NCBI RefSeq assembly: GCF_030684315.1
Contig: NC_081358.1
Span: forward strand, 102,258,756 to 102,322,755
From: Stegostoma tigrinum
Taxonomy: Eukaryota
Direction of reading: 5' to 3'
Length of the DNA: 64,000 bases
Shown: piece by piece, positions 3,075-61,799 of the stretch
Position numbering within the stretch: the stretch's first letter is position 1
How the letters are laid out: every line of letters begins with the position of its first letter
Notes under the pieces: generated by a model
The model's input: the letters and a program-made list of their open reading frames with translations, nothing else
Told to the model about the DNA's origin: nothing
Database searches by the model: none
Made by a program: the position numbers and the translations under genes

Positions 3075-4050
3075 GGAACAAATTACTGCAGATGCTGGAA
3101 TCTATACTGAAAACAAAAACTGCCGGAGATCACAGAGGGTCAGGCAGCATCCCTGGAGACAGAACAAGTGAAAGTTTCGTGTCTAGATGACTCTTCATCA
3201 GAGCTGAAGTGAGGACTGGAGGGGACAACATTTATGCTGTAGTTGGGAGTGGGAGGTGTACTAAGATAGTGAGTCAAGGGTGCTGATGGACAAAAGGTGT
3301 TGATAGTTGACATTAAGTGACTGGAATGTAAGAATTACAGAAAAATTTCTTGTCTCTTGCCAGACGTAAAAGGATAGACAGTCCCCACTGGGATGGGCAG
3401 GAGAGGAGAGAAGGCATGATAATGAACAAAAGAAAGGGAAGAAATAGGAGCTGGTTTACAATTTAAAGATGTTGTAAAGTACCTAATATGAAGTTGAGAT
3501 GTTGTTCCTCCAGTGTGTGCTGTGATTCAGGGGCACACTGCAGCGTGCTGAGGGCAGACATATGAGCATTCGAGCAGTTGTGTTTTTCTTATTCATTCAC
3601 GGGATGAGGCCATTGCTGACCAGGCAGTATTTGTTGCTCTTGCCTAACTGTTCAGAGTGCAGTTGAAATTCAACCACATTGCTGTGGGTCTGGAGGCATG
3701 ATTCGGCCAGACCAGATATGGATGGCAGTTTTCTTCCCTTCCTTAAAATGACCAGCTGTAGGAAGGGAAGGAAACTGCTTACACACAGACTGGAAGTGTT
3801 CTGCAAAGCGGTCTCCCAGTCTGCATTTAGTTCCTCCAATATACAATAGGCTACACTGGGTGCAGTGAATACAATACACAAGATTGGAGGAGGTAGAGGT
3901 GAAATGCTGCTTCACCTGGAAAGAATATTTAGGTCCATGGATGGTGAGCAGGGAGGAGGTGAAGGGGCAGGTATTTCACCTTCTGCAGTTACACGGGAAG
4001 CTTGCTGTCTCTCCAAGGATACTGTCTGATCTCCAACATTTATTGTTTTT
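3075..4050 (-). mobile_element. Penelope-like (Neptune-type) 3' fragment with a decayed GIY-YIG domain and an inverted terminal piece
   Basis: ORF 3670-3915(-) reads HFTSTSSNLVYCIHCTQCSLLYIGGTKCRLGDRFAEH. Hammerhead motif at 3171-3201(-). + oriented terminal piece at about 3999-4050. Degenerate TSD ggcaccaaaactat (3057-3070) / ggctccaagcctat (4051-4064). Confidence 0.85.
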
Positions 4051-4659
4051 GGCTCCAAGCCTATGTTTGGATTAAAAAAAATCACCTGCAACCTACCATT
4101 ATTTCAAGAAGTTTTCACCTCATTTGGCCTTATTTGCATTTGCTAAATTGTAATATGAACTGAAAAAACTTGCATTTCTACGATAATTTTTTACCTTTTC
4201 AAGACAGTTCAAATTGCTTCGAAGGGCAGTTTTTCTTTTATTCCAATCAAATCACTGCTGTAATGAATGAAGATCTACTAGTCAGTTTGAACATAACCCG
4301 AGAACCGAAGGTACAACCTGTCAAAATGGTGTTGGTAGTGTTCATTGAAACAAAGAGGATTGTTGGCCAGATGTTAGGGGTACTCTATTATTTTTCACCA
4401 GTTGATTGGATGTTGCTACCAAAGTCCAAAATTTATTGAGGTTCATGATCCATTAGAATGAAATCACTCCCACGTTAATGGCAGGCAGTTCCATGATTTT
4501 TATACAGTGACAGTAAAGGAATGGAAGTATATTTCAAACTAGCATTCTGTGTGATTGGTGGAAAAAATACAGCATTCCCAAGCTGCTCCTCTTGTTTTGT
4601 CCATCTCGAGACGGCAGCAATACAGAGTCATTCGCTTGTACGTGCCGTAAAGAAACTTT

Positions 4660-5130
4660 GGCAATTAGCTACAGAGCATCATATAGATTGTACAAATTAC
4701 AGCCACTGGTTGATGTTGCAGGAACCAAGTGCCAAGATGGTAGATGGAGTATCAGTTAAGCAGTTCTTTGGAGCAACAGATGAAGAACATCCCATCACTT
4801 TCCTGATTTGTGCTTTCAGATAGTGGAAAAGCAGTGGGAAAATCAGAAAGTGTACCATGCTGCAGAATACACAAATTCTGATCTGCCTTCGAGGCTATAG
4901 TATTTCAGTGGTTGGCCCTGTTAAAATACATAGCTTTAAATTTTTGATCAATGGTAAATCTCTTGGAAGTTGATTTTTTGGGATTCATTTATGGTCATGC
5001 AATTAAATGATACGGGAAAGTGGTTAGACACTCCTTGATTAGAAATGGTCATTAGCTAGTATATGTGTCACAAATGTTACACAACACATGCTGGATATCA
5101 GTTCCAGCTTGAATGCTGCTTGAAAGGAGA
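4660..5130 (-). mobile_element. Decayed LINE fragment (family B)
   Basis: Similar to 12450-12800 and 52800-53160. Confidence 0.55.
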
Positions 5131-5559
5131 GCAGTACCTGTTCATGAAAGAGTCTTCTTTTTGTACAATCTGCTTGCAGCCTTCCAGCCCTGCTCACTGT
5201 CTTAAACCCAAGCCCATTCACTTACACTGCTAGTATCCTTTCCCTTTCAGCAGTACATCACAAGTGGATCTGGGACTTTGAGCAAAAACTCCCTCCTGCA
5301 ATCCCTACCCCTCCTCCCCTTCTAAACTTGAGATTCTTCTCAATAGGGAATAAGGTGTGAGGCTTGGACTTCTGTTTCTCAACAACACCATCGCCTCCCC
5401 CTTGGCCTGCAACTTCTCCAAGCCCAGAATTCTCCTTTTCAGCACAAAATTTCCCAAGTCTGCTGAGTTTCTCCAGTGCGTGCTGTTTGTGTTTCAAATT
5501 TCCAACACCCAATTCTTTGTTTTTAATCAATCTACTCAATCTTTCCTCATAACAAAGTC

Positions 5560-6975: not shown

Positions 6976-7101
6976 TAGAAGAAGGGTCCCGACCCAAGAC
7001 GTCAACTTTCCTGCTCCTCTGATACTGCCTGGCCTGCTGTGTTCCTCTAGCTCCATAGTGTATTATTTCTGACTCGAGCCGTCAGCAGTTCTTGCCATCT
7101 C
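6976..7101 (+). mobile_element. Solo PLE terminal piece with a degenerate hammerhead
   Basis: gaagaagggtcccgacccaagacgtcaactttcctgctcctctgatactgcctggcctgctgtgttc matches the termini at 50836-50927. Confidence 0.75.
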
Positions 7102-7301
7102 ATCCAGACGTGTTTTTTTTTAACTGACATTATTTCTTCATTTGTTTGTTACTATGCTAAGTAAACGCCTGGCACTCTGTAAATTCTTATTTCTTTACAT
7201 GTTTGGGGGCTGAGTCTATGTTTGCAATCTTTGGTGGGAAGTGGGAACTGTTTTTATATTTTCAAAATTTCATAATACTATAATCTAAATAGGTCATAGA
7301 A

Positions 7302-9014
7302 CCTCTCTCTCCTTCCTGGGCCTCTCTGTTTCCATCTCTGGCAACCACCTGGAAACCGATATCCATTTCAAGCCTACCACAGCTACCTAGAATACACCTC
7401 CTCTCACCCAGCTTCCTGCAAAAAGACCATCCCCTATTCCCAATTCCTTCGGTTCCATCACATCTGCTCCCAGGATGAGGCATTCCACTCCCGGACATCC
7501 CAGATGGCCTCATTTTTCAAGGACCACAACTTCCCCTCCACAGTGGTGGAAAATGCCCTCGGCCATGTCTCTTGCATTTCCTGCAACTGATCCCTCACAC
7601 CCCCTCCCCACAATAACAACCAAAACAGAATCCCCCTCATCCTCATATACCACCCCACCAACCTCCGGATCCAACGCATTATCCTCCGGCACTTCCGCCA
7701 TCTGCAATCTGACCCCGCTACCAAAGACATTTTTTCTTCCCCATCTTTGTCTGCTTTCCACTCTCTCCGTGACTCCCTCATCCGCTCCACCCTCCCCACC
7801 AGCCCCACCACCCCCAGCATTTTTCCCTGCAACCACAGGAAGTGCCACACATGCCCCTACCCTCCCCCCTCACCCCCATCCCAAACCCTAAGAAGATCTT
7901 CCACATCAAACGGATATTCACCTGCTAATGTGGTATACTGCATCTGCTGTTCCTGATGTGGCCCCCTCTACATCAGGGAAACCAACGGGCGGCTTGGGGA
8001 CCGCTTTGTGGAACACCTACGCTCAGCTCACAACAAACAACAGCACCTCCCAGTCGCGAACTATTTCGACTCCCCCTCCCACTCCTTGGACAACATGTCC
8101 ATCCTGGGCCTCCTGCAGTGCCACAATGATGCCACCCGAAGGTTGCAGGAACAGCAACTCATATTCCGCTTGGGAACCCTGCAGCCCAATGGCATCAATG
8201 TGGATTTCACAAGCTTCAAAATCTCCCATCCGCTGATCGCATCCCAAAACCAGCCCAGCTTGTCCCCACCTTCCTAATTTGTCCTTTCTCCCATCTATCC
8301 ACTCCTCCCACCTCAAACCCCACCCCCATCTCCTACCTACTGGTCTCATCCTGCCTACTTGACCTGTCTGTCCTCCCTGGACCGATCTATCCCCTCCCTA
8401 ACTCACCACCTACATTCACCTTTACTGGCTCCAACCCCACCTCTTTGACCTGTCTGTCTCCTCTCCATCTATCTTCTCCTTTATCCATCTTTTATCCACC
8501 TCCCCCTCTCTCCCTATTTATTTCAGAATCCCCTTCCCCTCCCCCATTTCTGAAAAAGGGTCTAGACCTGAAACTGTATCAGTGATAATAGGAACTGCAG
8601 ATGCTGGAGAATCCATGATAACAAAGTGTGGAGCTGGATGAACACAGCAGGACAAGCAGCATCTCAGGAGCACAAAAGCTGATGTTTCGGGCCTAGACCC
8701 TTCATCCTCCGGAAGGAGGAGGGTAACTTCTTCAGGTTAGGCATCCCTGGAAGAGGCTTCGCAGTGGGGTTGAAATTGTATCAGTGATAATGGGAACTGC
8801 AGATGCTGGAGAATCCAAGATAACAAAGTGTGGAGCTGGATGAACACAGCAGGCCAAGCAGCATCTCAGGAGCACAAAAGCTGATGTTTCGGGCCTAGAC
8901 CCTTCTGTTCATCCAGCTCCACACTTTGTTATCTAGACCTGAAACATCAGCTTTCCTGCTGCTCTGATGCTGCTTGGCCTGCTGTGATCATCCAGCTCTC
9001 CACCTTGTTACCTC
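7302..9014 (+). mobile_element. 5'-truncated Neptune-type PLE (RT C-terminus, Cys linker, GIY-YIG, terminal repeat); frameshifted; carries a nested insertion
   Basis: Peptides FPCNHRKCHTCP, ANVVYCICCS and EHLRSAHNKQQHLPVANYF...RRLQEQQLIFRLGTLQPNGINVDF. TSD aggtcatagaa (7291-7301) / aggttatagaa (9015-9025). Confidence 0.9.
8575..8931 (-). mobile_element. Nested PLE terminal-repeat tandem (two units, 202-nt period, plus a short inverted piece)
   Basis: Units start with tgtatcagtgataa at 8575 and 8777. Flanked by a perfect tctagacctgaaac at 8561-8574 and 8932-8945. Confidence 0.9.
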
Positions 9015-9504
9015 AGGTTATAGAATGAAATTATTTTCTATGTGTTTAAGTTAAGAATACATGCTGGTTTATTTCTTACAAGATTGCAGATGGGTAAATA
9101 CATACTGAATTAGCAATCCAGCCTCCTTTATAAAAATTCACAAATGTGGAGGTCAGATGTATAGTGTTAAAGAGGAAAATCAGTTCTACCTCTCCTGACC
9201 TGGTAATAGCAGTGCTCTGAAATCTATTATGCCTGCCTCATTTCACAGTTTAATATCGCTTCTGAAGAATTGTAACTTTGACCACACAGTTCTAAAGTCA
9301 CTGGATAAACAAAATGTACAAGGGGGTGGGACAAAGGAAGAAATAACATGAGGTAATGGTGCTCCTTTAATAAGTTGGTGCTCACTTCCTTTGATACTTT
9401 CCTTTCAAATTTGGGATTCAGATTTTAACCCAATTTTAACTAGTGACACCAAAGGATCCCTGCTTGCTTTATAAAGACATTAAATGAATCTGTGCTACTT
9501 TTTT

Positions 9505-10284: not shown

Positions 10285-10530
10285 ACAAAAATAGAACTAC
10301 AGACACTGGGAATCTGAAACAAAACATAATTTTTTGGAAAAGCTCAACAAGTCGGGCAGCACCTGTGCAGAGAAAGCAAAGTTAATGTTTTGAGTTCAGT
10401 GACCCTTCTAAATGAGGGTTCCGAGTTCTGAAAAAAGGACACTGGACTTGAAATGTTGATTCATTTTTCTCTCCACCAATCTTGCCAGACCTGCTGAGTT
10501 TCTCCAGCTTTTTCTGTTTTTGTTTCATAT
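10285..10530. mobile_element. Fold-back pair of PLE termini
   Basis: Minus piece at about 10285-10409 followed by a plus piece at about 10425-10528, each with a degenerate hammerhead. tacacct on both flanks (10273, 10531). Confidence 0.75.
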
Positions 10531-12299: not shown

Positions 12300-13400
12300 G
12301 CCCAGAACAAAAGAATGAATGGCAATTTATTTTGCATTGTATCTTACAGATAGTACACACACTGCTGCTGCTAAACATCAGTGGTGGAGGGAGGGAATGT
12401 TTGTGGATGTGGTGCGAATTACATGTCCTGAATAGTGTAAAGGTCCTTGTCTGGTTAGTTTCACTCATCCAGGCAAATGACACATATTCCATCAAATCTT
12501 GACCTCTGCCTCATTGATGGTAGAAAGACTGCGGAATTAGGAGGTGAGGTACTCACAACAGGATTCCTAGTCTCTTACCTGCTCTTGTAGTCACAGTATT
12601 TATTTGGCTTATCCAGTTCAATGTGTGATCAGCAGTGCCACCCAGGATATTGATGGTGAGACTTTCAATGATGCTACTGCCATTATATGTTAAGGGGTGA
12701 TAGTTAGGTTGCATCCTGCTGGACGTGGACATTGCCTGGCACTTGCATGGTGTGAATGTTACTTGCCAGCTGTCACCCAAAGCCTAGATATTGTTCAGAT
12801 CTTGCCACTTTGAACATGGACAACTCCTGTATTTGAGGGGTCACAAATGGTGCTGAACACTGTGCGAACATCAGTGAACGTTCCTTCTTGCAATCTCACA
12901 AGGGAGGGAAGGTCATTGATGAAATAGCTGAAGATGGTTGGGCCAAGGACACTACCCTAAGGAACTCATGTAGAAATGTTCTGGAGCTGAGATGACTGAT
13001 CTCTGAGAACCATACTGTTGCTCCTTTTTGTAAAGTATGACTCCAACTAGTGTAGAGATTTCTCTCTGGTTCCCATTGACTCCAATTTTGCAAGAGGTCT
13101 TTGATGTCACAGCCTGTCAAAAGTGACCTTAATGTCGCCTCACCTCAGATATCATCCCTTTTTTCTATATTAGGACCAAAACCGATATCAGGCCAGGGAC
13201 TGAGTGGTCGTGGCAGAATACAAACTGAGCATTGGTGAGGAGGTTGTTGCTAAGCAAGCGCTGCTTCCTAGTGATGTTGATGATGCCTTCCATCATCTTT
13301 CTGAAGATTGGCAGTAAACTGATGGACAATAATTGGCCAGCTTCTATCTGTCCTGCTTCTTTGTAATGGATGTATGTGTGTAAATTTCTACATTGTTGGT
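12300..13400 (-). mobile_element. LINE family B RT fragment
   Basis: Frame pieces WQVTFTPCKCQAM and HTLNWISQINTVTTRAGKRLGIL. Confidence 0.8.
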
Positions 13401-13714
13401 AAAAGGAAGTTGTATTTCAACAAAGAGTAAGGACATTGTTAAAGGTCCAGGAGTAAGAATTTGAGACAGGAAAATAGATACAATGAAGATACAATGTATC
13501 CTGGAACAATGACAGCATTGGAAATGATGACAGATATCTGAATAGGTACTATAACCTTAGGAGGGGAGGGGGCCACAATGAAGAAGGAGTGAGATCAGGA
13601 GGGAAAAAAGCAGTACATACAATGGTATGGAAAGGGGCAACTGCAGTTTGACAGGTTAAGGAAATATTCTGTGAACTATGGGGCATAACAACATTCCAGA
13701 GAGAGTACTAAAGA

Positions 13715-14900
13715 CTGGTATTCCAATGCAGCTACAATACTGGCATCTACCTCATTACAGCTTTTGTTCAAACATGGAGCAAAGAAGTGAACTCCAGACA
13801 TGGGATGAAAATGACTGCACTTGGCATCATGCTGTGTGGCACTTTTGACTGTGTGTGGCATCGAGGAGTTCTTGTAAAACAAGAGTCATCAGGAATCAGA
13901 GACAAAACTCTCTGATTTTTGGAGTCATAACTAGCACAAAAAAAGATAAGTTGTGATTGCTGGTGATCAGTCATCTCAGCTGCAGGGTATCTCTGCAGGA
14001 GTTTCTCAGGGTCATGTCCTAGGCCTGCTTCATCAATGACCTTCTATCTATCAGAAGGTCAGAAGTGAAGATATAAACTAATGATTGTACATTGTTCTGC
14101 ACTAACTGCAACTGCCCAGATACTGTGGGTCTATGGAGCAAGTCTGAACAAACTCCTGGCTTGGGATAACAAGTAATATTTATGTCACACAAATGCCAGC
14201 TAATGACCATTCTCAACAAGAAATAATCCAATAGTTAGTACTTTACATTCAATGACATTACCATCACTGAATAACCACTATCAACAACGTGGGGATTACC
14301 ACTGACTAGAATCTGAATTTAAGTAGCAACATAAATACTGTGTCAAAAGAGCAGGTCACAGGCTTGGAACCCAGTCACCTCCTGACTCCTTAAAGCTTTC
14401 CCACCATCAACAAGGTGCAAGTCTGGAATGTGATGGAATACTCCCCACCTGCCTGGATGAGCTCAGCTCCAACTACAATAGTCAAGATGCTTGACACCAT
14501 AGGACAAAGGTATCCAACTGATTGATACCATGTCCAGAAAGATTCACTCCTCTCTCACTGATGTACAGTAGCATCAGTGTGTGCCATCAACAAGAGCCAC
14601 TGTAGAAATTCACCATGGTTTCTTCTCACATTCCAAACCCATGACCGTTTGGAAGGACAAGGGCAGCAGATACCTGGGAAGGCTGACACCTGCAAATTCA
14701 TTCATCATCATGACTTGGAAATATATCACCATTCCTTCATCATTGCTGGTTTAAATCATGGAACTTCCCATTCAACCATACTCTGTGTGTCACTATTTCC
14801 AAAAGACTGCAGCAATTCAAGAGGAACCTCACTACCAACTTCTCCTGGGCAATTAGGATGAGTAATAAATGGTGGTACAGGCAGTAATGTCTTCATACTA
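13715..14900 (+). mobile_element. LINE family B RT fragment and 3' end
   Basis: ctgcaggagtttctcagggtcatgtcctaggcc (GVPQGSVLGP-like) and 3' tail gggcaattaggatgagtaataaat. Confidence 0.8.
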
Positions 14901-15017: not shown

Positions 15018-15185
15018 GAGATAATAGGAGCTGCCGATGCTGGAGAATCTGTGATAACAAGGTGTAGAGCTAATGAGCACAGCAGGCCAAGCAGCATCAG
15101 AGGGTCTAGGCCCGAAACGTCAGCCCTCCTGCTCCTCTGGTGCTGCTTGGCCTGCAGTGTTCATGCAGCTCTACACCTCGCTATC
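15018..15185. mobile_element. Fold-back pair of PLE termini
   Basis: Minus piece gagataataggagctgccgatgctggag...gcagcatcag joined to plus piece agggtctaggcccgaaacgtcagc... Confidence 0.85.
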
Positions 15186-16234
15186 TGCAATACTTTTCTT
15201 TTGTTTAATATGAAATGCTGTTTCTAAACTATGCAATGATGTTCCTCCTGTCTTTATAAGTGACAGAAAGTGTGGCGTGCTGCAACTCCTTGTAACTCAC
15301 ACATGATCTGCTGACTAAATTATAAATAATATATAATTACTGCAAAGTGGTATTTTGCAATTCATTTGGAAACTAATCAGTGTATATTATAAACCATGGA
15401 GAATACGATGCAATTATATGTTTGATAAATCAGAGTGCCTTGCCTTCAGTTGATTATGTGTTTTACCCAGACTAGTTACACATTTTGCATAAATGGATAG
15501 ATGTGTTATGCAAACAATAATTATCGCACCTTCTGAGACAGCAGCAGAGGTTGTTGATTTCATGCTTTTCTCAAAGAAGAGTATGAAGTATGACTTGTGA
15601 CTGATAGCTGATGTAGATTGACACACTCTAATGTGATCACTTCTTTCACAGACATTTATACACCAGTTAATAGGCTGGTTAGTGCTAAGTGGCAGATGGA
15701 TCTTTCACTCTCCCACATCCATAAGGATGTTGAATGATGGCTGCTATCCACCTCAGTGACACACCTCTCACACTGGATGTGAACACAAAAAAAAGTGTTG
15801 TCCTGACGAAAGATATGGATGTGAAAAATTGAGGGTTCTCTCTCCACAGTGACTACCTGAAGTATTGAGTATTTTGTACATTTTCGGGTCTTATACTTTA
15901 GAATTCAGTGTGTTTACTTGATGGGATGTAAGATGTAAGACACAGGAGCAGATGTAAGCCATTTAGCCCATTGATTTGCTTTGCTATGCTATGCAATGTG
16001 ATTATGTCTAATCTGATAATCTTCAACTCCACCTTCCTCCTCATTACTACTGTTTACTAATATGCTGCAGGGGAAACTTTTTAAAATTTTTGATCCTCCA
16101 TTCATTATTCATGAATACTTTTCCATGATGCATAATGCAAGATGTACTGGTACTCCTATAGTGTCTTTATTGAACTTGGGACACCCCAAATAACTTTATC
16201 ACTAATAAAATATAATAGTAATTGCTGTCACTCT

Positions 16235-16611: not shown

Positions 16612-16945
16612 GAAGGAGGCAGTGGTGTAATAGTAATATCATTGGTGTATAAATCCAGATTATGGGTTAATGGGATAATGGGTTATAGGGGTCCAACCAT
16701 CAGAGATGGTTATATTTGAATTCAATTTTTAAAAATTGAGAATAGAACTAGTAATGTATCAATTGTTGTGAAATCCCAGTTGGTTTACTAATGCCCTTGA
16801 AGGAAATCTGCCTTGCTTACCTGTGACTCATGGTCTACATGTGATTCCAGATCCCAAACGAATGGTTAATTGTCAATTGCCCTCTGGGAAAATTAGGGAT
16901 GGTCAATAAATGCTGATCTAGCTGGCAACACCTGCTTCACACAAA
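16612..16945 (+). mobile_element. tRNA-derived SINE with LINE family B tail
   Basis: A-box ggcagtggtgtaatagtaa, internal aggaaatctgcc...acatgtgattccaga, tail attagggatggtcaataaatgctg. Confidence 0.75.
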
Positions 16946-18549
16946 TATGTAAAACAGTTGCTGATAAAACTAACGTAGAAGAAGAAACTTTAAATTTGAG
17001 AGTTCTTGGGTTCATAACGATCCAGCAATGCAAAGCAAGGGAACGTCTCCAAACGGAGTGCCAGTGGATTTGTTTGAACACAATTGATATCATTTTCAAG
17101 GCATTATCCTGTGCCGTTGATCATTCCCAGAGATTCCAAAGGGCAATTGACAGGGGAAGGGATCTCGGTTTTATTTCTTTTTTATATAAAAAAATAATTT
17201 TTTTTGGAGATGTTCCCTAAACCAGTCCTGAATTACAGCTTTCCCCGAAATGATGAGATGGTGTTTCATCTAACTCAGGACTAACTACTTTTCAATTTTT
17301 TTTAAACTTGAAGAGTTGGAGCAAAGGGCAGGGTGGGAGGATACATCACCCTTTGACCGGCAGCAGATCCCCTGGCACCGGAGTCACCGTTTTGCTACAA
17401 CCCCCGGGATTGACTAGGTAGCTTTCCACAGTGCAGCGTTCAGACAGCTCAGTTGACAGGCATCATAAGACCCATTTCGGATAGAGTTAGGCCCTACACT
17501 CTCTCCCTTCTCCCATTCCATTCCTCTTTATCGCCTGTCCGCGTTCTCTTCCCCTTCCAGTTCTATCGTTTCTTTTTGATCCCTCACCCTCTTGTCTTCA
17601 CTTTCCTATCCTCCAGGCTCGCTTGGGCTTGCACTTTTCCTGTCATTTCTTTCGATTTAATGTGAGCCTCCCCTTACCCAGACCTTGTCCCCTGTCTTCC
17701 TTTCTACCTGGCGTCCCACTCGAAGCTGCCCACGGTCAGTGAAGGCTCCGCCGGCACTCACTTGGAAACGCCTGGGAACACTGTCGGCAGGAATCCACTT
17801 CCACAAGGAGCCGGGAGCTGTGTGTTGGAGGGGAATGTCAGTGAAAGACTCTAACGACCCCCCAGTTATCGCATCGGTCAGAATTGGAACAGCAAGACTG
17901 AGGCAGACAGACCTGTTTCTCTGAAGTTATGTGAGGGGTGCCACAGCTAACATGACCCAACACACAAGTAGCAGGGTTTAGGTTCATGTCAGTGAGCCTG
18001 TATTAATTATGTTTGTGTACTACATACCATTCGGTCCATTCTCTGATTTTCACACTGTTAACCCTTTGGAGTGAACAATTTATTTTCAGTCCTGAGTTTC
18101 GGATCTCTTCGGTTTTTTTTCTCTCCCCCCCGAAAGAAACTATTTCTGTGTATTTCGCTGATCCACGGGCATTTTTGTTTGAAATTTTGCTGAATTCAAT
18201 TTGGGCCAAGGCAGAGAGGGAGTTTGTCGGGGGGTGGGGCTCGTTTTCCTCACCGGCCGAGAGTTTCGTAGTGTGGACGGATGTTGTTCAATTCTTTGAC
18301 AAGGAGTCTCCTGCCTATGAGGAGAGGACGGCAGGAGGTGGAGGGGGTGACTTAGAAACCAAGCCCATCCCTTCCTCACCGCGCGGTCCCTTTACTGTTA
18401 GAGTGTATGATCCCTTTAAGGGCTCCTGGTTCTGCGGTGTAATGACTGAGTGTGACAGGAGGAGGACAGAATTGGAGAAGTTTTGAGAGCTGGGGTGTGG
18501 GTGGCTGGTGTTGGTGGTATGAGGGGAAAAATATAATCGTCAGTGAGCC

Positions 18550-18557
18550 TGACGTCA
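18550..18557. promoter_or_regulatory. Full palindromic CRE (CREB/ATF site)
   Basis: TGACGTCA about 170 nt upstream of the candidate ATG. Confidence 0.6.
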
Positions 18558-18722
18558 CATGAGAATTAATACAGACTAAATTTGCAAGGGGGAGAGGTAC
18601 AGGGAGGACTGCATTCATGACACTACGCGGTCAGCGATGCAAACGATTGCTATCCTGAGTTTGTGAATCTGCCGGCGCCTGCACTTTCCAGGATTCAATG
18701 AATTTGCAACCGATATACAGGA

Positions 18723-18770
18723 ATGAAGCGGCTGCTGCTTTGGATTCTAGTGGCAGGCGCAACTCTCCAG
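18723..18770 (+). CDS. Probable first coding exon encoding a signal peptide, MKRLLLWILVAGATLQ (alternative donor would extend it to 18819); gene not identified
   Basis: Purine at -3 (ggaATG), basic n-region plus hydrophobic h-region, donor CAG|gtacat at 18770 or TTT|gtgagt at 18819, located inside the CpG-rich region. Confidence 0.6.
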
Positions 18771-19125
18771 GTACATGGACGCATTTTTTGTCTTAATTCG
18801 AGTGGAAGGGTTCACTTTTGTGAGTAAACGATAAGTGGAAAAGTAGAGGATGTCAGCCCGGGGATTCTGTTGGGGGGGGCGGGTGGAGGATGAAAGGATT
18901 ATGGAAAGGAGCACAAGGAGGAGAGAAAATAAAAGTGGCAAGACGAAAAACCTTAAGGGGAGTGTTTTCTTGGGGGGGGGAGAACAACAGGGAGTTTGAA
19001 ATCTAAGAGTGAGAAAATCAGGATTTCTTTTATAATAGTAAGTAGCAGAGGATTATGTATCGCATAGAAAGTGTAGCTCATCTACAGATATTTTACTAGT
19101 CAGCCTAAGAACGTTATTACATGTC

Positions 19126-19201
19126 TCTAGAGCATGTGGGAGTTGAACCCACATGTTGGAGTCGTAGCTTAAAGGTAAGGCCGCTACCACTGCACCGCTA
19201 G
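19126..19201 (-). mobile_element. tRNA-derived SINE head (related copies at about 24345-24430, 45900-45985 and 54370-54455)
   Basis: Reverse complement tagcggtgcagtggtagcgg...gtgggttcaactcccac shows A and B boxes; no complete cloverleaf. Confidence 0.6.
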
Positions 19202-21774
19202 ATTCCACCGGCTGAAGGTTGGGGAAGTAACTGAATGAGAATGGGCTGTCTGGAGAAACACATCAATTCCTCCAAACACGTGGCGAAATTGTTTTGGCAG
19301 AAGAAACCCTTCAATCAGGAACATTCATGAATGACAATTAGATTTCCTCACTTTGTTTTCAGATGTAGTCATTGAAAGAGTGTTTGAATTCCTTGTTTAT
19401 GTGGGAGAGCAGTGGGAAAGAGGGCTGGGGGTGGAGAGGTGGGGGAATCGCAGAACAAGTGTCTTGGAAACATCTGTAAAGATTTCGGGGAGCGAGTCCT
19501 GGCAGTCACAGCTGTGCACCAACTGACTCGCTGAAGCTTGAAGCGACATTCCCGGTGTTTTAGTGGAAATGATTTAATGCCTCAATTTGTCGTGCTACAG
19601 TCGAGACTTAAACTTTGTGGAAGATTCCAAGGCAGGAAACGACAGTACAAGGAAGGTGCCAGGGTAAATACATGATATGTACTCTCCATGCTGTGCAGAT
19701 GAATTTAATCTTGACAATGCGGGGCCCGAATATTTCAAAGGGATCTTTGAGGGAGAAAAAAGCACATCTAGAAAAAAAACTTTGATTGGGAGAAACCAGA
19801 GCTTTTGCGTCTGTTCTTTCCTGCCATTGATGTTGCTTAGAGCTATACACGCTTTATGTACGATAAAATGCCTCCCAAACACTCCCCAAAACAGATGGCT
19901 TTTTTTTCAAAAAAAGATTCTGGGTCCTAAAAAAGAACTTCCGCAAACGCTATACCTCTCGTGGAGTTTTGCAGAGTTTACTTTAGCTCACTGTGCGGTG
20001 CTGCTACTGGTAACTGCAGTGAATGAAACAATGTAAGAAGGACACAGCCTTTTGGGCGGCGGGTGAGTCAGAGGCTCTACAAAATAATTGCTTTCTTGGG
20101 GCCCACTTAAGCCAACATTGACCAAACGCATCATAAACATGAAGTCCAGAAAAATATGCCCTAACAGTATGACAAGCTGCAATATAACTTGTCGCATACG
20201 ATCATGACCACCTTGAAACCTATCTAAGTATCTAGCCCTATGTAAGGGAGGGATTTCATGGGCTTCTATGATCCATTCAATAGGGAAGAAGCCACCCATA
20301 CCCACTTGACAAGTCTATCCTGCTGAAGCAAACCCAGAAGTCAGAAGGGCTCTCATTTTCTCTTGCAAGGGCTCCCTTCAGAGTGGTTAAAACACTTCAT
20401 CTTTGGACACGACCTTCTGTGAACAGTATGACAAAGCCATGTTTGTAGCAAATATATCATATGTGAATGAATTTTCTTTGCCTGGGCTTTTTCTCAGTTG
20501 GTCTAAACCGAAAAGATCAACAAAGATTGAGGGAGCTGTTACTTTCGCTGCTAACTGCAGGCAATGTGATCTTATGTCCCTATTGGAGAAACAATAGTGG
20601 TTATTAACATTATGAAGGATCATGATTTTCCAAAGTAACTGCCGAGGCGGGTTATTGCTTGTCGTAGTGCTGTAGTGTCTGCAGTGCAAGATTTTTATGT
20701 TACCTAGGATATCATTAGAGTTGCTTCTTAAAATGCAAGTTACAATAGTAACTTGCATTTTTATAGCATCCTTTAATATTGCAAAACAAGCAAAGATGGA
20801 TCACAAATATTATCAGATGTGACGTTGCGCCACGTTGGATGTATTCTACTGGATAGTTTTGAGAAGGAGCTTAGCAATATGGGTGTGGAGAGAATAAATA
20901 GCTATCTATCAGATCTCACCAAGCACTTTAATTTGTTTTGGTATCCCAGCATCAAAATATTTTCATTTGCTATTTTTATTCTAACGTTTATTAAGGCTGG
21001 ATTCTCAAATATGCCTGCCAGTGAATCGGCTCTTCATGTTTACATGGCTAAATCCAGATCCTTCCTTCCAGTGGCAGGATTAGAAACCCACAAAAAGAAG
21101 CTGGAGTGTATCAGGCTAAAAACAATAAAAAGCATGAAGAGTTGACCTCTGAGTCCCTGTCTGCCAGAGCGAAAAAACCTCACCTCCATCCCATATGAGT
21201 TGTTCAGTGCAGTCATTGTAAATTCGTTAGCAATTTGGTGAAAGTAGCCCACAAATGAGTTTACATGAATGGATTTACCTTTGCACTGCCAGATGGAAAC
21301 TACGTTCCTGAGTTAGTACAACAATATGCTGGAATATAATATCTTTGAGGTATTGGGTCAGCCTGTGGAGTTTCACGGGATTGTTTAAAACAAACCAAAA
21401 TTGAAAGCCAGGTGAAGAATGAGACATTAAGCCAGATGATGAAATGGATGGGTTGTAAGTTGCATCTTAATGGGAGAGAAAGATTTTCGAAGAGTGCAAT
21501 GTTTATGCGCAATGAAAAATAAGCTTCACTGGAAAGCTTTTACTATATTAGAAGAAATAACTGCTGTAAACTGCATCCAGCTGGCCATGATATTTCTCAG
21601 TTTATAGAGTGTACCATTCGTACAACTGATTCTGTCCAAATGCAACCATTACTTTTACACTGTGACCCTTTTTTCATAAAGATTCCAAAGAAAATTAAGG
21701 GCAATTTCAATATAGCTCTTCAACATGAATTGAAGACATTTTGGCTCAGAGTTTATATTAAGCCAGTCACATAG

Positions 21775-22085
21775 CTTTTTATTCACTCTTGGGATGTGGG
21801 CATCACTGACTGGGTCAGCATTTATTGCCCATCTCTAGTTGCCCTTCAGAAAGTGGTGGTGAGCTGTTTTCTTGAACCACAGCAGTCCACATGCTGTGAA
21901 TAAATCGACAATACCACTAGAGAGGGAATTCCAAATTTTGACCCAGCAATATTGGAGGAATGGTGATTTACTTCCAAGTTAGGATGGTAAGTGTCTTTGA
22001 CGGGAATTTGCAGGTGTTGACATTCCCATTTATCTACTGTTCTTGTCTTTCCAGATGATACTCATCCTGGGTTTGGAAGGCGTAT
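21775..22085 (-). mobile_element. LINE family B 3' end
   Basis: tttattcactcttgggatgtgggcatc...agcatttattgcccatc...gtggtggtgagctg. Confidence 0.75.
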
Positions 22086-22194
22086 GTTTTGTTTTAAATT
22101 AGCTATCGAATTATATGTCCAGAAGGAAAGGAAACTTGTCCACTATTTCAATCAGATGGTATACAGTTTCTAGATTGAAACCGTCTTTAAAGTG

Positions 22195-45531: not shown

Positions 45532-45875
45532 ATTAGTAGGAGCTGCAGATGCTGGAGAATATGAGATAACAAGGTATGGAGCTGGATGAACGCACCGGGC
45601 CAAGCAGCGTCAGAGGAGCAGGAAAGCTGACGCTTCAAGCCTAGACCCTTCTTCAGAAATGGGGGAGGTCAAGGGGGTTCTGAAATAAATAGGGAGAGAA
45701 GGGGAGGCAGATAGAAGATGGAAAGAGGAGAAGATAGGTGGAGAGGAGACAGACAGGTCAAAGAGGCAGGGATGGAGCCAGTAAAGGTGAGTGTAGGTGG
45801 GGAGGTAGGGAGGGGATAGGTCAGTCCAGGGAGGACGGACAGATCAAGGGGGCGGGATGAGGCCAGTAGGTAGGT
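45532..45875 (-). mobile_element. PLE 3' region and terminus
   Basis: Reverse-complement homolog of 8330-8570 plus terminus. Confidence 0.85.
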
Positions 45876-46847
45876 GTGTACTTTTGGTCAATTTGATTGT
45901 ATACATTATGGCATACTGGAGCAGGTTAGACTTGTACCCAGACCTCCTTGTTTAAGAGTAGGGACACTACCACAGTGCACAATGGCAGTACACTTCTTAA
46001 TTCCTAGTAATTTCCCACAAATGGAACACATAAGGATAATTCAAAAAGTTAGTTCATCAAGACAGGGAAAAATTAAGGGTGAGCAATAAATATTAACTTT
46101 GCCAGTGATGCACAAATAAAATCAAAGAAAAATCATTGGTTCATCAAATGAATGGATTCTCATAACCTTAGTATGTCTCCTCACTCTGATGATTCAATGT
46201 TCGGCATGATTCACTGTTGGTACGATTCAGTGTTAATGTCCAAGTCCAGATTAGTGCCTAAAAACTTGTATATCTAGCAGAACCTAAACTGAACTCCAGT
46301 GAGATGCTTCTTAATGAGTTAGTGCCACATTACAACAGAATTAATGACTCTTCCTTTTGTTTAACTGATTATTGAGAGGAGGCAGGCAGGGCGGGGTCCT
46401 AATTGCCCTAATTGGACACAGTGGTTGTAAGCTTCCTTGTAGAACTACTGCGAGATGTAAGGACATCGTCAATGCTGTTTGGAATAAAGCTCCAGGATTT
46501 TGACCATTAAGGAACCACAATATCTTTCCATGGATGGGATGGGTATGGAGGCATATGAACCAATGCAGGCAAATGGGACTAGTTTAAGTGCAAATAACAC
46601 AGACAAGTTGGGCCCAAGGATCTATTTCCATGCTGTAAATCTCTATGTTGCTGTGAGTCTAAATCAGGGTGATGTGTGGCCTGGAACGGCAGGTGCTGGG
46701 TTTCCTGTGTACCTGCTCCCTTTCACTTGTAAGTGTTTGATGTCATAGCCTTGGAAGGTGCTGTACTTATCTCCCACAGTTTCCTTGAAATGATGTACCA
46801 AATCGGACTTTTTTGAACCATTTAGGGGGAAGGGCAGGTTTCGTTCA

Positions 46848-47446
46848 GAAAAGCAAAATACTACAGATGCTGAAAATCTATATTGAAAAGATGCTGGAGA
46901 AATCCAGCGCGGCTACAGCATCTGTGGCGAGAGAAAGCGAGTTAATATTGTGTAATCACTATCACTTCTTCAGAACGTAATTTGTTGCCAGAGTGGGAGG
47001 AAGAGTGAGTGGCAAAAGACAAAAGGATTGCTAATGGTAAAACAGTGATAGATAAGCAAAATATGTGTGAATAGATAGGTGTGAAAAGGAAAACATGGGA
47101 TTTGCTCTGTTGAGAGTAGGGTGTTGGGAGCTGGGGTGGTGGTGTTCGAGTTAGGGTTAGGATTAAAAGACAGGACAGAGATCATACTCTGAAGTTGTTA
47201 ACCTCAACATTGAGCATTAAATATTGTAAGATGCATAAGTGGAAAAGGAGGTGTCACTCTTCCAGCTTCTATCAAGCTACATTGGAACACTGTAGCAGGT
47301 CCAAGATAGAAATGTTAACATTGGAACAATATGGTTTATTGAAATGAGAAACAACTGGAAGATTTTCCGCAAAGTGGTTACCCAATTTATATTTGGTCTC
47401 CGCTGTGTAAAGGAGGTTTCACCAGCATTTTTTCTCTTTATTGCAG
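46848..47446 (-). mobile_element. Old PLE 3' fragment with an inverted terminal stub
   Basis: aaagcaaaatactacagatgctg terminus; decayed GIY-YIG DNA at about 47190-47415; plus stub ccagcattttttctctttattgcag. Confidence 0.65.
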
Positions 47447-50370: not shown

Positions 50371-50928
50371 GAGAGATAATAGGAACTGCAGATGCTGGAG
50401 AATCTGAGATAACAAAGTGTGAAGCTGGATGAACACAGCAGGCCAAGCAGCATCTCAGGAGCACAAAAGCTGACGTTTCGGGCCTAGACCCTTCATCAGA
50501 GAGGGGGATGGAGAGAGGGTTCTGAAATAAATAGGGAGAGAGGAAGAGGCGGACCGAAGATGGATAGAGGAGAAGATAGGTGGAGAGGAGAGTATAGGTG
50601 GGGAGGTAGGGAGGGGATAGGTCAGTCTGGGGAGGACGGACTGTTCGAGGAGGCAGGATGAGGTCAGTAGGTTGGAAATGGAGGTGCAGCTTGAGGTGGG
50701 AGGAGGGGATAGGTGAGAGGAAGAACAGGTTAGGGAGGCGGGGACGAGTTGGACCGATCTTCTCCTCTATCCATCTTCGGTCCGCCTCCCACTCTCTCCC
50801 TATTTATTTCAGAACCCTCCCCCCATCCCCCTTTTCTGATGAAGGGTCTAGGCCTGAAACATCAGCTTTTGTGCTCCTAAGATGCTGCTTGGCCTGCTGT
50901 GTTCATCCAGCTTCACACTTTGTTATCG
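50371..50928. mobile_element. Young fold-back PLE terminal insertion inside a tRNA SINE (host at about 50250-50370 and 50938-50995)
   Basis: Minus arm 50371-50750 and plus arm 50755-50927. TSD ccaaacgtt at 50362-50370 and 50929-50937. Confidence 0.9.
50472..50499 (-). ncRNA. Minimal type-I hammerhead ribozyme motif with intact core
   Basis: Reverse complement CTGATGA A GGGT-CTAG-GCCC GAA ACGT C. Activity is not shown by sequence alone. Confidence 0.7.
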
Positions 50929-52384: not shown

Positions 52385-53640
52385 GGCATTTTGTTTTATT
52401 CAGTTGTGGGATGTGGGTACTGCTAGCTGGGTATTTGAGAAGGTGGTGGTGAGCTGCCTTCTTGAACCACTGCAGTCCACCTGCTGTAAGTTGACCCACA
52501 ATACCCTGAGGGAGAGAATTCCAGGATTTTGACCCAGCAACAGTGAAGGAACGGCAATATATTTCCAGGTCAGAATGGACAGTACCTTGGAGAGGAACTT
52601 GCAGTTGGGGGGTGTTTCCGTGTATCTACTGCCCTTGTCCTACTGGCTCAAAGTAGTTGTGGGTTTGGAAGGTGCTGATGAAGGATCTTTGCTGTTGGTC
52701 TGCAGCACATCTTGTAAATATTACACACTGCAGCAACTGAACATTGGTGGTGGAGGGAGTGGATGCTTGTGAATGTTGTGCCAATCAAATGGGCTGCTTT
52801 GTTTGAGATGATGTCAAGCTTCTTGAGTGTACTTGGTAATGTACCCATCCAGGCAAGTGGGGGATATTCCGTTGTATTCCTGACTTGGGCCTTGTAGATG
52901 ATGGACAGGCTTTGGGGAGTCAGTATTTCTAGCCACTGACATGCTCTTGTAGCCACTGTGTTTACATTGCAAGTCCAGTAAAGCTTCTGGTCAATGATAA
53001 CCTCAAGGATATTGATAGTGGGGATTCAGTAATGATAACACTGTTGAAGATCAAGGGCTCATAGTTAGATTGTCTCTTATTGGAGACGGTCACTGTCTTG
53101 CATTTGTATGATGTGAATGTCACTAAATGCCACTTGTCAGCCCAAGTCTGGATGTTGTACAGATCTTGTTACATTTGAACATGGCTTGCTTCTGTATCTG
53201 AGGATGGTGCTGAACATTGTGCAATCATCATCAGACATCTCCACTTCTGACCTTATGATGGAAGGAAGGCCATTGATGAAGTAGTTGAGGTGCTTGGCGT
53301 GAGGACACCACCCAGAGGAATTTCTGCAGAAATGCCCTGGAGCTGTGTTGATTGATCTCCAAGAACCAGAACTATTTTCCTATGTGCCAATCAGTGGAGA
53401 GTTTTCCCCCGATTCCCATTAATTCCAGTTGTGCCTGGGCTCCCTTGATGCCACACTCCGACAAATACAGCCTTGATGTCAAGGCCTGTCACTCTCACCT
53501 CACCTCTGGAATTCAGCTCTTTTGTCCATGTTTGAAACAAGATTGTAATGAGATCAGGAGCTGAGTGGCCCTAGTGGAACCCAAACTGGGCATCACTGAG
53601 CAGGTTGTTGCTGAGCAGGTGCTATTTGATAGCACTGTCG
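52385..53640 (-). mobile_element. LINE family B RT to 3' end
   Basis: LTPQSLSIIYKAQVRNTTEYPPLAWMG...TLKKLDII. Confidence 0.88.
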
Positions 53641-54459: not shown

Positions 54460-54825
54460 AGGATAGTTTAGCCTTGAAGGAAGTACGGTATAAATTAGCC
54501 AGACTGATATCCAGACTCCAGAAGTTAATTTGCAAGAGGATTGCACGTAGTAAGGTTATAGCCCCTCAGATTTAGAAGCTTTGTTTTCAAGGTGTTAAGG
54601 ATGACAGAGAATGTAGATTTAGAAAACCAATTTCCACTATTTTGGAGAGTCTGGGTTAGGGGATATAGCATGAAAATTGGAACCAGGCATTTGGGGAATG
54701 AAGAGAGATAACAAGGTGTAGAGCTGGATGAACACAACAGGCCAAGCAGCATCAGAGGAGCAGGAAGGCTGATGTTTTGGGTCTAGACCCTTCTTCGGAA
54801 AAAGGAATGAAGTTAGGAAACAGTC
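54460..54825 (+). mobile_element. CR1-like 3' fragment with a nested PLE terminus (54704-54803, minus)
   Basis: TSD ggaatgaag at 54695-54703 and 54804-54812. Confidence 0.8.
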
Positions 54826-58065: not shown

Positions 58066-58716
58066 CTCTGTAACTTCTAAGACTGACATTCCCAGTAAAT
58101 AAGCTGGAATGATTGCTATCCCAGCTCTCCGGTCTGCTTTTCACAGTTTTCTGTTGTATCTTGATCATTGTGGCTGTGCAATGCATTGTGCATGAGCCAC
58201 GTAAAGAGAAATGTTGGAAGTAAATGACAGTTCGGAGATTTTGTGCACAGTTTTGACTCCCTCCCAAACTAGTGAAAAGTAGTCAGGATAATGAAATGTG
58301 AGGCTGGATGAACACAGCAGGCCCAGCAGCATCTCAGGAGCACAAAAGCTGACGTTTTGGGCCTAGACCCTTCATCAGAGAGGGGATGGGGTGAGTGTTC
58401 TGGAATAAATAGGAAGAGGGGGGGGGGTGGTGGGCGGACCGAAGATGGAGAGAAAAGAAGATAGGTGGAGAGGAGAGTATAGGTGGGGAGGTAGGGAGGG
58501 GATAGGTCAGTCCAGGGAAGACGGACAGGTCAAGGAGGTGGGATGAGGTTAGTAGGTAGGAGATGGAGGTGTGGCTTGGGGTGGGAGGAAGGGATGGGTG
58601 AGAGGAAGAACAGGTTAGGGAGGCAGAGACAGGTTGGACTGGTTTTGGGATGCAGTGGGTGGAGGGGAAGAGCTGGGCTGGTTGTGTGGTGCAGTGGTGG
58701 GAGGGGACGAACTGGG

Positions 58717-59450
58717 CTAGTTTTGGGATGCGGTGGGGGAAGGGGAGATTTTGAAGCTGGTGAAGTCCACATTGATACCATTGGGCTGCAGGGTTCCCAA
58801 GCGGAATATGAGTTGCTGTTCCTGCAACCTTCGGGTGGCATCATTGTGGCACTGCAGGAGGCCCATGATGGACATGTCATCTAAAGAATGGGAGGGGGAG
58901 TTGAAATGGTTTGCGACTGGGAGGTGCAGTTGCTTATTGCGAACCGAGCAGAGGAGTTCTGCAAAGCGGTCCCCAAGCCTCCGCTTGGTTTCCCCAATGT
59001 AGAGGAAGCCACACCAGGTAGAGTGGATGCAGTATACCACATTGGCAGATGTGCAGGTGAACCTCTGCTTAATGTGGAAAGTCATCCTGGGGCCTGGGAT
59101 AGGGGTGAGGGAGGAGGTGTGGGGGCAAGTGTAGCATTTCCTGTAGTTGCAGGGGAAGGTGCCGGGTGTGGTGGGGTTGGAGGGCAGTGTGGAGCAAACA
59201 AGGGAGTCACGGAGAGAGTGGTCTCTCCGGAAAGCAGACAAGGGTGGGGATGGAAAAATGTCTTTGGTGGTGGGGTCGGATCGTAGATGGCGAAAGTGTC
59301 GGAGGATGATGCAGTGTATCCGGAGGTTGGTGGGATGGTGTGTGAGGACGAGGGGGATCCTCTTTGGGTGGTTGTGGTGGGGGCGGGGTGTGAGGGATGT
59401 GTTGCGGGAAATGCGGGACACGCGGTCAAGGGCGTTCTCGAACACTGTGG
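58717..59450 (-). pseudogene. PLE ORF C-terminal part (thumb/linker and GIY-YIG), left arm
   Basis: RIPLVLTHHP...AFRRDHSLRDSLV...FPCNYRKCYTCP...VVYCIHSTWCGFLYIGETKRRLGDRF. Confidence 0.9.
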
Positions 59451-59822
59451 CGGTTGTGGCGGGGGCGGGGTGTGAGGGATGTGTTGCGGGAAATGCAGGA
59501 ATTCCATCCCCTATTCCCAATTCCTCCGCCTCCGCCGCATCTGCTCCCACGATGAGGCATTCCACTCCTGCACATCCCAGATGTCCAAGTTCTTCAAGGA
59601 ATCCTCCGACACTTCCGCCATCTACAATCCGACCCCACCACCCAAGACATTTTTCCATCCCCACCCCTGTCTGCTTTCCGGAGAGACCACTCTCTCCGTG
59701 ACTCCCTGGTTTGCTCCACACTGCCCTCCAACCCCACCACACCCGGCACCTTCCCCTGCAACCGCAGGAAATGCTACACTTGCCCCCACACCTCCTCCCT
59801 CACCCCTATCCCAGGCCCCAAG

Positions 59823-60293
59823 ATGACTTTCCACATTAAGCAGAGGTTCACCTGCACATCTGCCAATGTGGTATACTGCATCCACGCTACCCGTTGTGGC
59901 TTCCTCTACATTGGGGAAACCAAGCGGAGGCTTGGGGACCGCTTTGCAGAACACCTCTGCTCGGTTCGCAATAAGCAACTGCACCTCCCAGTCGCAAACC
60001 ATTTCCACTCCCCCTCCCATTCTTTAGATGACATGTCCATCATGGGCCTCCTGCAGTGCCACAATGATGCCACCCGAAGGTTGCAGGAACAGAAACTCAT
60101 ATTCCGCTTGGGAACCCTGCAGCCCAATGGTATCAATGTGGACTTCACCAGCTTCAAAATTGCCCCTTCCCCCACCGCATCCCAAAACCAGCCCAGTTCG
60201 TCCCCACCCCCCACTGCACCACACAACCAGCCCAGCTCTTCCCCTCCACCCACTGCATCCCAAAACCAGTACATCCTGTCTCTGCCTCCCTAA
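59823..60293 (+). pseudogene. Uninterrupted GIY-YIG endonuclease domain of the PLE ORF (RT portion truncated)
   Basis: FTCTSANVVYCIHATRCGFLYIGETKRRLGDRFAEH...PVANHF...EQKLIFRLGTLQPNGIN, preceded by a CNRRKCYTC linker. Confidence 0.9.
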
Positions 60294-61799
60294 CCTGTTC
60301 TTCCTCTCACCCATCCCTTCCTCCCACCCCAAGCCGCACCTCCATCTCCTACCTACTAACCTCGTCCCACCTCCTTGACCTGTCCCTCTTCCCTGGACTG
60401 ACCTATCTCCTCCCTACCTCCCCACCTATACTCTCCTCTCCACCTATCTTCTTTTCTCTCCATCTTCAGTCTGCCTCCCCCTCTCTCCCTATTTATTCCA
60501 GAACCCTCACCCATCCCCCTCTCCGATGAAGGGTCTAGGCCCGAAACGTCAGCTTTTGTGCTCCTGAGATGCAGCTGGGCCTGCTGTGTTCACCCAGCCT
60601 CACATTTCATTATCTTGGATTCTCCAGCATCTGCAGTTCCCATTATCACCGAAAAGTAGTCAGGATTGGCTTACTGAAACCTCCAACCAATTTTTCAGGC
60701 ACTGCAGCGAATTCATCAGCGTTCATTTTTAGGGTCACTAGAGGAAGTTTGCAGGTAAGTTTTCTACCAGAACCTAATGTGGTGCAGTCATAAATGCAGA
60801 CTTGTGTGTGCCTCAGCTGGCATCTGAGCCACAGAGGGCTCTGGAATGGCAAACTACATGAGGATGTCAGGCTGCCCCTTGAGACATGCCACAATTATTA
60901 AAATGGAGCCTGAGATCCAGTTTAAGGTATTGCTGGGGTCTCTTAGCCCTGGGGCCCCTTGACTGCTTGTCCCAAGGAACATTCTTAGTTTCAGATGTGA
61001 ATGCGTTAAGGCCTCACTTTTCGCCATGGTTCAGGAACTCGGAACAAGGGTAGGTGGGTGGGGAGCTTGTAAATTCTTCTCATACAGAGCCTTATGAGAC
61101 AATGCAATGTACGACTAAACTAAGTTGTTAATACAAAGACTGCACCGAGACTAGAGAAACAGATTAAGATTTCAAAATACAGCAAATTTTTATGAATTGA
61201 CACTCTTGATAAAATGGCAAAAATTATAAGCCTGAAATACCACAAATTTTACTGTATTATTGTATCTAGTTATCATAGCATTTTAATTTATTTACCTCAA
61301 TGTAAATGCTGTTCAAGTGAAAAGCTCAAATTTCTGCGATCTACCGCAATGTCTGAGTAGTCAGTTGAGGGTGAGGGAGAAAGCTCTCTGCCAGAAAGAT
61401 TTATTTTAAGGCAGAGTTGCGTTATTATTTATGCAATTTATGCTGTGAATAAAGCATAACAGCGATGTATATATTCTTGTATTACATTTCTATTAGTGTG
61501 TGTTTTTACGTGGATTATGTGGATCTCAAGAGCAATCAGAATATTTGATCTACCAGCAAAATCCTGGTCCCAAAGGTACTGGCTAATAAAAAGTTTGCTG
61601 TAAAACCAGAAAGTGCCAGCAGGTCTGGCAGTGTCTGGTATAGAGAAACAGGATCATCCTATTTGGTGATGCAGGTGGGATTTAAATGCTCTCAGGAATA
61701 TTATCAACTGAGCCATTACAGTGCTCTCTTAAATCGCAATATGGTCAGTGGCCTTGAAGCAGGTTATTTTATCACTGTTTGCATCTTTCTCTTGCTTGC

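Follow-up and report, generated by a model that had tools for sequence, protein, structure and literature searches.

Short hammerhead-bearing copies of a Penelope-like element in Stegostoma tigrinum as likely by-products of an RNA that may begin at its own ribozyme

The locus considered here is a stretch of 64,000 nucleotides of the Stegostoma tigrinum genome (RefSeq assembly GCF_030684315.1, contig NC_081358.1, positions 102,258,756 to 102,322,755), hereafter the window, in which a small hammerhead-ribozyme motif is found at 19 listed positions from 3171 to 60523. An original prediction had described these motifs as termini of Penelope-like elements (PLEs) which were mobilised as short non-autonomous units and which seed a probable host intron with potential self-cleaving sites. 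The question raised by this locus is how so many short copies starting at a ribozyme came about, and whether the ribozyme does anything in them. It is likely, with a probability that we put at about 0.72 from the comparison of copy ends, that the short copies are dead-end run-off complementary DNAs (cDNAs) of the capped and mostly uncut RNA of an autonomous element, an RNA which would start at the first base of helix I.

The motif layout used comprises the C3-A9 box, one extra base, a helix II of 4-5 bp, the G12-A15.1 box, a 4-nt palindrome replacing helix III and then the cut triplet. Positions are numbered from C3 as +1, with the predicted cut between +28 and +29. Recognisable remnants were identified at all 19 sites, on the strands originally given, and the motif is much more frequent than chance would allow, with 64 matches to a structure descriptor in 604 kb (window and sampled genome) compared to 10-15 in five Markov controls. 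An Rfam scan returned no hammerhead among its 8 matches at E<=10, the motif being without helix III. The window sites are terminal-repeat hammerheads of endonuclease-bearing PLEs, an already known kind of motif. This origin was supported by locus L023, where the motif stands in terminal repeats (at 4542 and 8212) flanking an intact frame of 1,101 codons, in a unit of 3,670 bp with an inverted truncated copy upstream. The frame encodes a reverse transcriptase (RT), a CX4CXXC linker and, at the C terminus, a GIY-YIG endonuclease with a CCHH motif. Its Pfam RT and GIY-YIG matches are both below the curated cut-offs, and its protein has 648 relatives, the best of which shares 77% identity and comes from Chiloscyllium punctatum (bamboo shark). 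A search of the genome with the GIY-YIG protein of the window gave at least 150 matches, headed by the window itself, and GIY-YIG coding remnants adjoin several of the window motifs. Traits of the Neptune/Nematis type are also present, namely a partial tandem, an inverted 5'-truncated copy and an optional tail of 30-40 bp.

Exact cores were counted genome-wide for young family A (96,611), family B (1,683) and families D/E (63), with no match in reversed-pattern controls for A and B. A looser core pattern gave 13,158 genome matches, mostly of family C, and a search for additional families gave just point variants of A and B. Family C (L116-L145, L132), also young, is a PLE family of its own. 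Its helix II has 6 bp and its helix I 3 bp, its intact cores number roughly ten thousand, its TATA-like box is placed further upstream (about -46), and no pile-up of copies is seen at the motif start.

Copy ends were collected from 1.404 Mb, made up of the window with 200 kb flanking it and of 114 stretches chosen by their position. After exclusion of copies clipped by the edge of a stretch, the sample holds 414 copies, including 279 of family A, 108 of family B and 22 of family C. As had been predicted, most copies are short and start at the ribozyme, with 180 of the 279 family A copies and 98 of the 108 family B copies beginning at -7 or later. The 5' ends of family A rise in a cliff just before the motif: 74 lie beyond -100, 23 at -100 to -11 (0.26 per nt) and 2 at -10 to -8, followed by 57 at -7 to -1 (8.1 per nt), 39 at +1 to +8, 70 at +9 to +45 (1.9 per nt) and 14 further in. 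Family B behaves similarly, having 46 of its 108 ends at -7 to -1 and 6 at -100 to -11. The 3' ends of family A gather at two points, near +93 (123/279 at +89 to +97) and near +128 (73/279 at +125 to +133), which match the two internal RT starts and the tail of an Anolis element (PMC11167929; this and the other papers cited were available in part, and statements on them apply to those parts). In sequencing run X2, the two largest piles of loose ends are at -1 and +93.

A TATA-like box stands at -33 to -35 in L023 and in every one of the seven examined window copies with upstream sequence, and it is present in families A, B and D. This places it about 30 nt before -4, and about 30 nt is the canonical spacing between a TATA box and the start of transcription. 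In families B and D, position -4 is the first base of the 4-bp helix I and also the A of what we take to be an initiator-like word. There are 4,939 junctions of young family A at -4 genome-wide, and 88 of the 100 matches listed have a G immediately before the junction, as counted by eye. After removal of junctions explicable by an inverted partner, G precedes in 47/59, with about 26% expected from base composition, and among non-selected copies in 5/7. At the +29 junctions used for comparison, G precedes in 7/25 (by eye, palindromic and microhomology rows removed). Of 30 loci inspected, several have a G supplied by neither side (e.g., L165, L171, L173, L175), and three listed joints of run X2 re-enter at -4 with a single G between. 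Untemplated G at the ends of L1 and SVA copies has been attributed to copying of the cap (PMC3287187).

These observations suggest a simple scheme. RNA polymerase II would start at -4, the first base of helix I, and RT would begin at the internal sites known for the element of Anolis, in the 5' as well as the 3' terminal repeat of the RNA. A start in the 3' repeat would yield long 5'-truncated copies, and one in the 5' repeat would have only 95-135 nt to run to the cap, copied as the extra G. Runs that reach the cap and carry the extra G argue that most templates were uncut. The placing of the start at the ribozyme is a modest addition to what is known: literature searches turned up neither a start site or cap G described for a PLE hammerhead nor any account of PLE hammerheads in sharks, although the supplements of PMC4209133 and PMC11167929 may hold such. 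Two other causes of the 5' cliff were rejected: a splice acceptor, as the copies have no common upstream exon and family A has no AG before -4, and stalling of RT at structure as the main cause, as the cliff is on the far (5') side of the fold.

A number of points weigh against this scheme. Run X2 may be the very source of the DNA studied here and is not independent support. Family C shows no peak of 5' ends at the motif start (1/22). The excess of G was seen only in young family A and not in small samples of older A (2/12) and B (3/20), and in three solo copies (L164, L167, L172) the G also fits a target duplication. Junctions at +29 are not rare, as detailed below, and some templates may be cut. 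Within inserted copies, core positions outside CpG are 4.2% diverged compared to 5.8% in the downstream flank (p=0.006), a difference that may reflect unresolved subfamily variants. Finally, the Penelope promoter of Drosophila virilis is TATA-less with its start well upstream of the motif (PMC4209133, PMC2377424), and a start at helix I is thus not a general layout.

What the ribozyme itself does in these elements was approached through its conservation. The minimal type I architecture that had been predicted was confirmed across families A-E. The C3-A9 and G12-A15.1 boxes, U16.1 and H17 are invariant in rows most of which were retrieved by core patterns, and the boxes also appear in consensus lines from copies collected by BLAST. 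Also present are the extra base after A9 and the palindromic 15.2-16.2, and G10.1-C11.1 is G-C in 10/10 rows. The extra A after A9, which had been likened to a special viroid variant, is instead standard in PLE minimal hammerheads (PMC4209133). The length of helix I is 2 bp in A and 2-4 bp in C, and families B, D and E have 4 bp. Helices I and II covary between families, as the original prediction would have it: in ten copies from five families, 90% of stem cells are paired versus 61% after shuffling, and 7/8 stem pairs change on both sides, figures that are not probabilities, the rows being related copies of which seven were retrieved by core patterns. The core also stood up to a test of its conservation against the flank between families. 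In five BLAST-collected subfamilies of family A, the second pair of helix I runs from oldest to youngest as U-A (11.5% diverged), U-G (7.7%, 4.9%) and C-G (3.5%, 3.0%). Covariation across families implies selection on the fold, which in active source elements would likely be for slow, protein- or dimer-assisted cleavage of the element RNA. The energy models used give the catalytic core no score; with this proviso, the family A monomer is predicted to form an inactive rod (-11.4 kcal/mol versus -3.6 for the hammerhead helices alone), and in families B and D the two predictions differ by no more than about 1 kcal/mol. Inserted copies give no clear indication of being under selection and appear to decay neutrally: G12 is changed in 50/209 copies compared to 158/701 at other CpG positions.

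With transcription beginning at helix I, it is conceivable, though rather doubtful, that the hammerhead is a self-decapping switch, the capped mRNA beginning with helix I and cleavage falling 32 nt from the cap. The trigger would be the protein of the element or pairing with the 3' motif, and the cut would remove the cap together with a short upstream reading frame and so direct RNAs either to translation or to reverse transcription. On this view the stubs, in their hundreds of thousands, would be a fossil record of the cap and, more rarely, of the cut.

A further possibility is that the short units are a non-autonomous element resembling a short interspersed element (SINE) or a retrozyme, transcribed and remobilised on its own, as had been proposed. 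The bulk of the copies are indeed short and begin at the ribozyme, several have target duplications of their own, the 3' repeats of truncated copies retain the TATA-like box from which short RNAs could arise, and head-to-tail repeats of 94 nt occur in 18 contigs of run X2. Animal non-LTR (long terminal repeat) retrozymes that are short, non-coding, derived from pseudo-LTRs (pLTRs) and equipped with a type I hammerhead have been described, with one chondrichthyan positive (bioRxiv 10.64898/2026.07.22.740005). When 258 of the 279 family A copies were placed in five subfamilies, however, short and long copies had the same consensus in all five, at similar divergence (3.4 v 3.5, 5.8 v 3.3, 10.7 v 14.9, 3.6 v 2.5 and 7.4 v 8.3%), and solo stubs lack an upstream TATA-like box. 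In the source, a retrozyme is by definition a tandem repeat in which two or more motifs are intact, whereas the window holds dispersed or inverted stubs, one intact motif and no tandem array of intact units, and no lineage distinct from the autonomous element was found. Independent mobilisation is thus improbable, and the stubs are most readily understood as side products that each active element left in its turn. Short units were also seen, rarely, in head-to-tail joins (L148, L170, L171 and L173), one type stepping back 94 nt; such joins could place two intact motifs in tandem, an arrangement expected to cleave.

It is less probable again that the ribozyme cuts efficiently in vivo and that cut or circularised RNA is a main template for new copies. 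Selection on the fold would be in keeping with it, ligation into a circle would re-form the cut site and leave no trace in long copies, and one listed joint of run X2 re-enters exactly at +29. Junctions at this position number 3,206 genome-wide, a count for that position alone, and there is a local excess of 6/295 young copies against about 1 per nt nearby, in a sample of all loci except those selected for +29 that includes 30 loci chosen for -4 junctions. Four of these six are explained by microhomology with an inverted partner, and among the +29 loci inspected 15/20 are inverted junctions with microhomology that spans a 4-nt palindrome or the first three bases of it. In the copy-end sample, 5' ends at +28 to +32 (11/279, 2.2 per nt) resemble the shoulder (1.7-2.0 per nt) and are far below the peak at -7 to -1. 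For the Anolis element, the dominant substrate was uncut RNA, and reads ending at the cut were absent (PMC11167929). A minor cleaved component among the templates is possible, and mostly uncut RNA is still preferred as the source of the short copies.

The window itself contains mostly relics. Varying states of decay had been described, and remnants are indeed found everywhere, yet a complete core is present at just one of the 19 sites, the copy at 50472(-) that had been singled out as intact (C3 at 50499). The features are as follows.

3113-4005, minus strand: old endonuclease remnant of a PLE (3745-4005), then a family D motif (C3 at 3201) that is damaged and has a TATA-like box.
6978-7091, plus strand: old family A stub starting within the core.
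7298-8574, plus strand: older 5'-truncated PLE (thumb, endonuclease and 3' untranslated region, UTR) with a terminal damaged motif at 8550.
8576-9015, both strands: cluster of three family A stubs, 8576-8706(-) from G5, 8708-8905(-) from G8 and extending to +200, into the start of the open reading frame (ORF), and 8932-9015(+).
10290-10524, both strands: head-to-head family B stubs, 10290-10409(-) and 10424-10524(+), the latter starting at -4 with G preceding.
15018-15186, both strands: head-to-head family A stubs, the plus copy from about +8.
23283-23500, both strands: head-to-head family B stubs, both damaged.
26172-26287, both strands: oppositely oriented family B fragments.
28517-28565 and 38865-38941, minus strand: family B stubs without motif, comparable to 35985-36073.
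31564-31863, both strands: family B stub 31564-31633(-) and family A stub 31763-31863(+), which starts in helix II.
35985-36073, plus strand: family A stub starting downstream of the ribozyme, without motif.
38956-40133, plus strand: old PLE remnant with the terminal family B motif 40036-40073 (4-bp helix I, G12>A) and a TATA box that precedes helix I by about 29 nt.
45530-45876, minus strand: older family A 3' UTR with damaged motif (C3 at 45656).
50372-50927, both strands: head-to-head PLE insertion with a 9-nt target duplication, in which 3' UTR, intact motif and tail (minus) are joined to 82 nt of UTR and the damaged motif 50836(+).
50468-50503, minus strand: sole intact minimal hammerhead of the window, of young family A, with C3 at 50499, predicted cut after 50472, 2-bp helix I and 4-bp helix II.
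50528-50533, minus strand: TATA-like box about 30 nt upstream of the putative transcription start at 50503, which was placed from copy ends.
54703-54801, minus strand: solo family A stub from about -3, with damaged core and a 9-nt target duplication.
58284-60650, both strands: inverted pair of 5'-truncated PLE copies (2.4 kb) that retain remnants of GIY-YIG coding sequence and, at 58378(-) and 60523(+), damaged motifs; the target duplication is of 16 nt.

The 4-bp helix I of the 40036-40073 copy and the two stem II variants (GGGT-CTAG-GCCC and GGGTC-ACCG-GACCC) are as claimed. Longer 5'-truncated insertions with coding or 3'-UTR sequence are terminated by 7/19 sites (3201, 8550, 40040, 45656, 50499, 58378, 60523), and the 50836 copy has 82 nt of 3' UTR attached. 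The damaged sites have core changes, many at CpG, or start inside the motif. G12>A is found in 40040(+) and 58378(-) and U4>C in 60523(+), C11.1 and the helix III palindrome are gone from 50836(+), and the core or a helix is damaged in 45656(-), 54798(-), 8550(+), 3201(-), 10428(+) and 23417(+). The C3-A9 box is partly or wholly gone from 6978(+), 8706(-), 8905(-), 10409(-), 15101(+), 23412(-), 26195(-) and 31763(+). No intact pair of motifs on the same strand occurs in the window. An unlisted decayed motif (C3 at 46973, within 46940-47418(-)) lies just downstream of an old endonuclease remnant (47098-47418), and there is a weak further candidate at 57640(-). Old fragments resembling long interspersed elements (LINEs), of at least two kinds and 63-74% alike, were also observed (39-463, 12356-14889, 21771-24153, 30500-31079, 42038-43627, 52434-53623).

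At L023:4588-4710 (+47 to +167), and also in the window at 8708-8815(-), a run of 27 codons begins with an AUG at +47. These codons share the frame of the main ORF, from which they are split by a single UGA at +128 to +130, exactly at the second RT start. The UGA is kept in six of the seven copies spanning the site and is UGG in the seventh, with the frame open on either side. Read-through, selenocysteine or re-initiation are possible at this codon. In young family A, a 13-codon upstream frame begins within the catalytic core.

The last reading, in which host pre-mRNA from both strands would be cleaved at inserted copies, with consequences for a host gene here, is highly improbable: 88 of 156 motif-spanning family A copies keep an intact core (by extrapolation roughly 200,000 genome-wide) and some intronic ones could pair as dimers, but the window has a single intact site without a same-strand intact partner, G12 is lost at the CpG rate, the young family with its 2-bp helix I is predicted to fold as an inactive rod, and minimal motifs are reported not to cut as monomers (PMC4209133) or to need the protein of the element (PMC11167929). 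The claim of a host intron seeded with working sites is not upheld, and no host gene was identified. A Pfam scan of 120 of the 309 non-repeat open frames of at least 45 codons gave none that reached a curated cut-off and no host exon, and contigs of run X1, whose status as RNA is a guess, cover five pieces of 17.7-21.7 kb with no spliced joint. A repeat-free 4.8 kb at 16929-21775 has a CpG observed/expected ratio of 0.5-0.64 at 17-20 kb, a palindrome like a cyclic-AMP response element (CRE) near 18551 and minus-strand donor-like sites near 17676 and 17761, and pieces of it are about 90% conserved in contigs of another organism. From these sequence features it is likely the promoter or first exon of a gene, and as this promoter-like stretch lies at 17-20.5 kb, part of the window may be intronic. 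An effect of the window copies on a host transcript is unlikely, given a single intact copy that has no intact partner. As a discovery about host regulation the finding is weak, with copies that decay neutrally and are nearly all dead in the window.

The role of hammerheads in PLEs is stated to be unclear (PMC8557442). A start at the first base of helix I, if true, defines the natural RNA to assay, explains the limit of 4 bp on helix I in these families and means that any cut removes the cap; the stubs document, in vivo and in very large number, where RT started and where RNAs ended. With the minimal hammerheads of metazoan PLEs (Cervera and De la Pena 2014, PMC4209133) the elements described here share the type I motif in both terminal repeats, the extra base between 9 and 10.1, G10.1-C11.1, the palindromic 15.2-16.2, several families per genome and an occurrence mostly as solo copies or opposite-strand pairs. 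Helix II is of 4-5 bp in families A, B and D, compared to 7-8 bp in Schistosoma, and helix I of family A has only 2 bp, as in D. virilis; the copy number is about ten times the figure of 9,000 for Xenopus (PMC4209133). The Anolis Poseidon element PAc (Frangieh et al. 2024, PMC11167929) has the same two internal RT starts defining an optional tail, uncut RNA as dominant template and a promoter presumed to lie in the terminal repeat. The shark element differs from it in the CX2-5CXXC linker of Neptune/Nematis and in the first Met of the main frame, which is at +167 and not in helix II, and no start-site map or cap-derived G was found in the available part of the PAc paper.

The endonuclease-bearing Neptune/Nematis PLEs (Craig et al. 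2021, PMC8557442) share the C-terminal GIY-YIG with CCHH, the CX2-5CXXC linker, partial tandems, an inverted 5'-truncated copy, the 30-40 bp tail and the terminal-repeat hammerhead, a likeness drawn from domain, linker and layout features and not from an RT tree. Unlike them, no microsatellite targeting was seen in the junctions inspected here. In neither Adineta vaga nor D. virilis Penelope is the start tied to helix I in the parts of the sources available (PMC3846280, PMC2377424), and the D. virilis promoter, besides being TATA-less, differs from that proposed here in having an intron before the ribozyme (PMC2377424). Both share the terminal-repeat promoter and head-to-head palindromic junctions with the shark elements (PMC3846280, PMC2377424), and Adineta Pen2a has a putative TATA plus initiator, as do the elements described here (PMC3846280).

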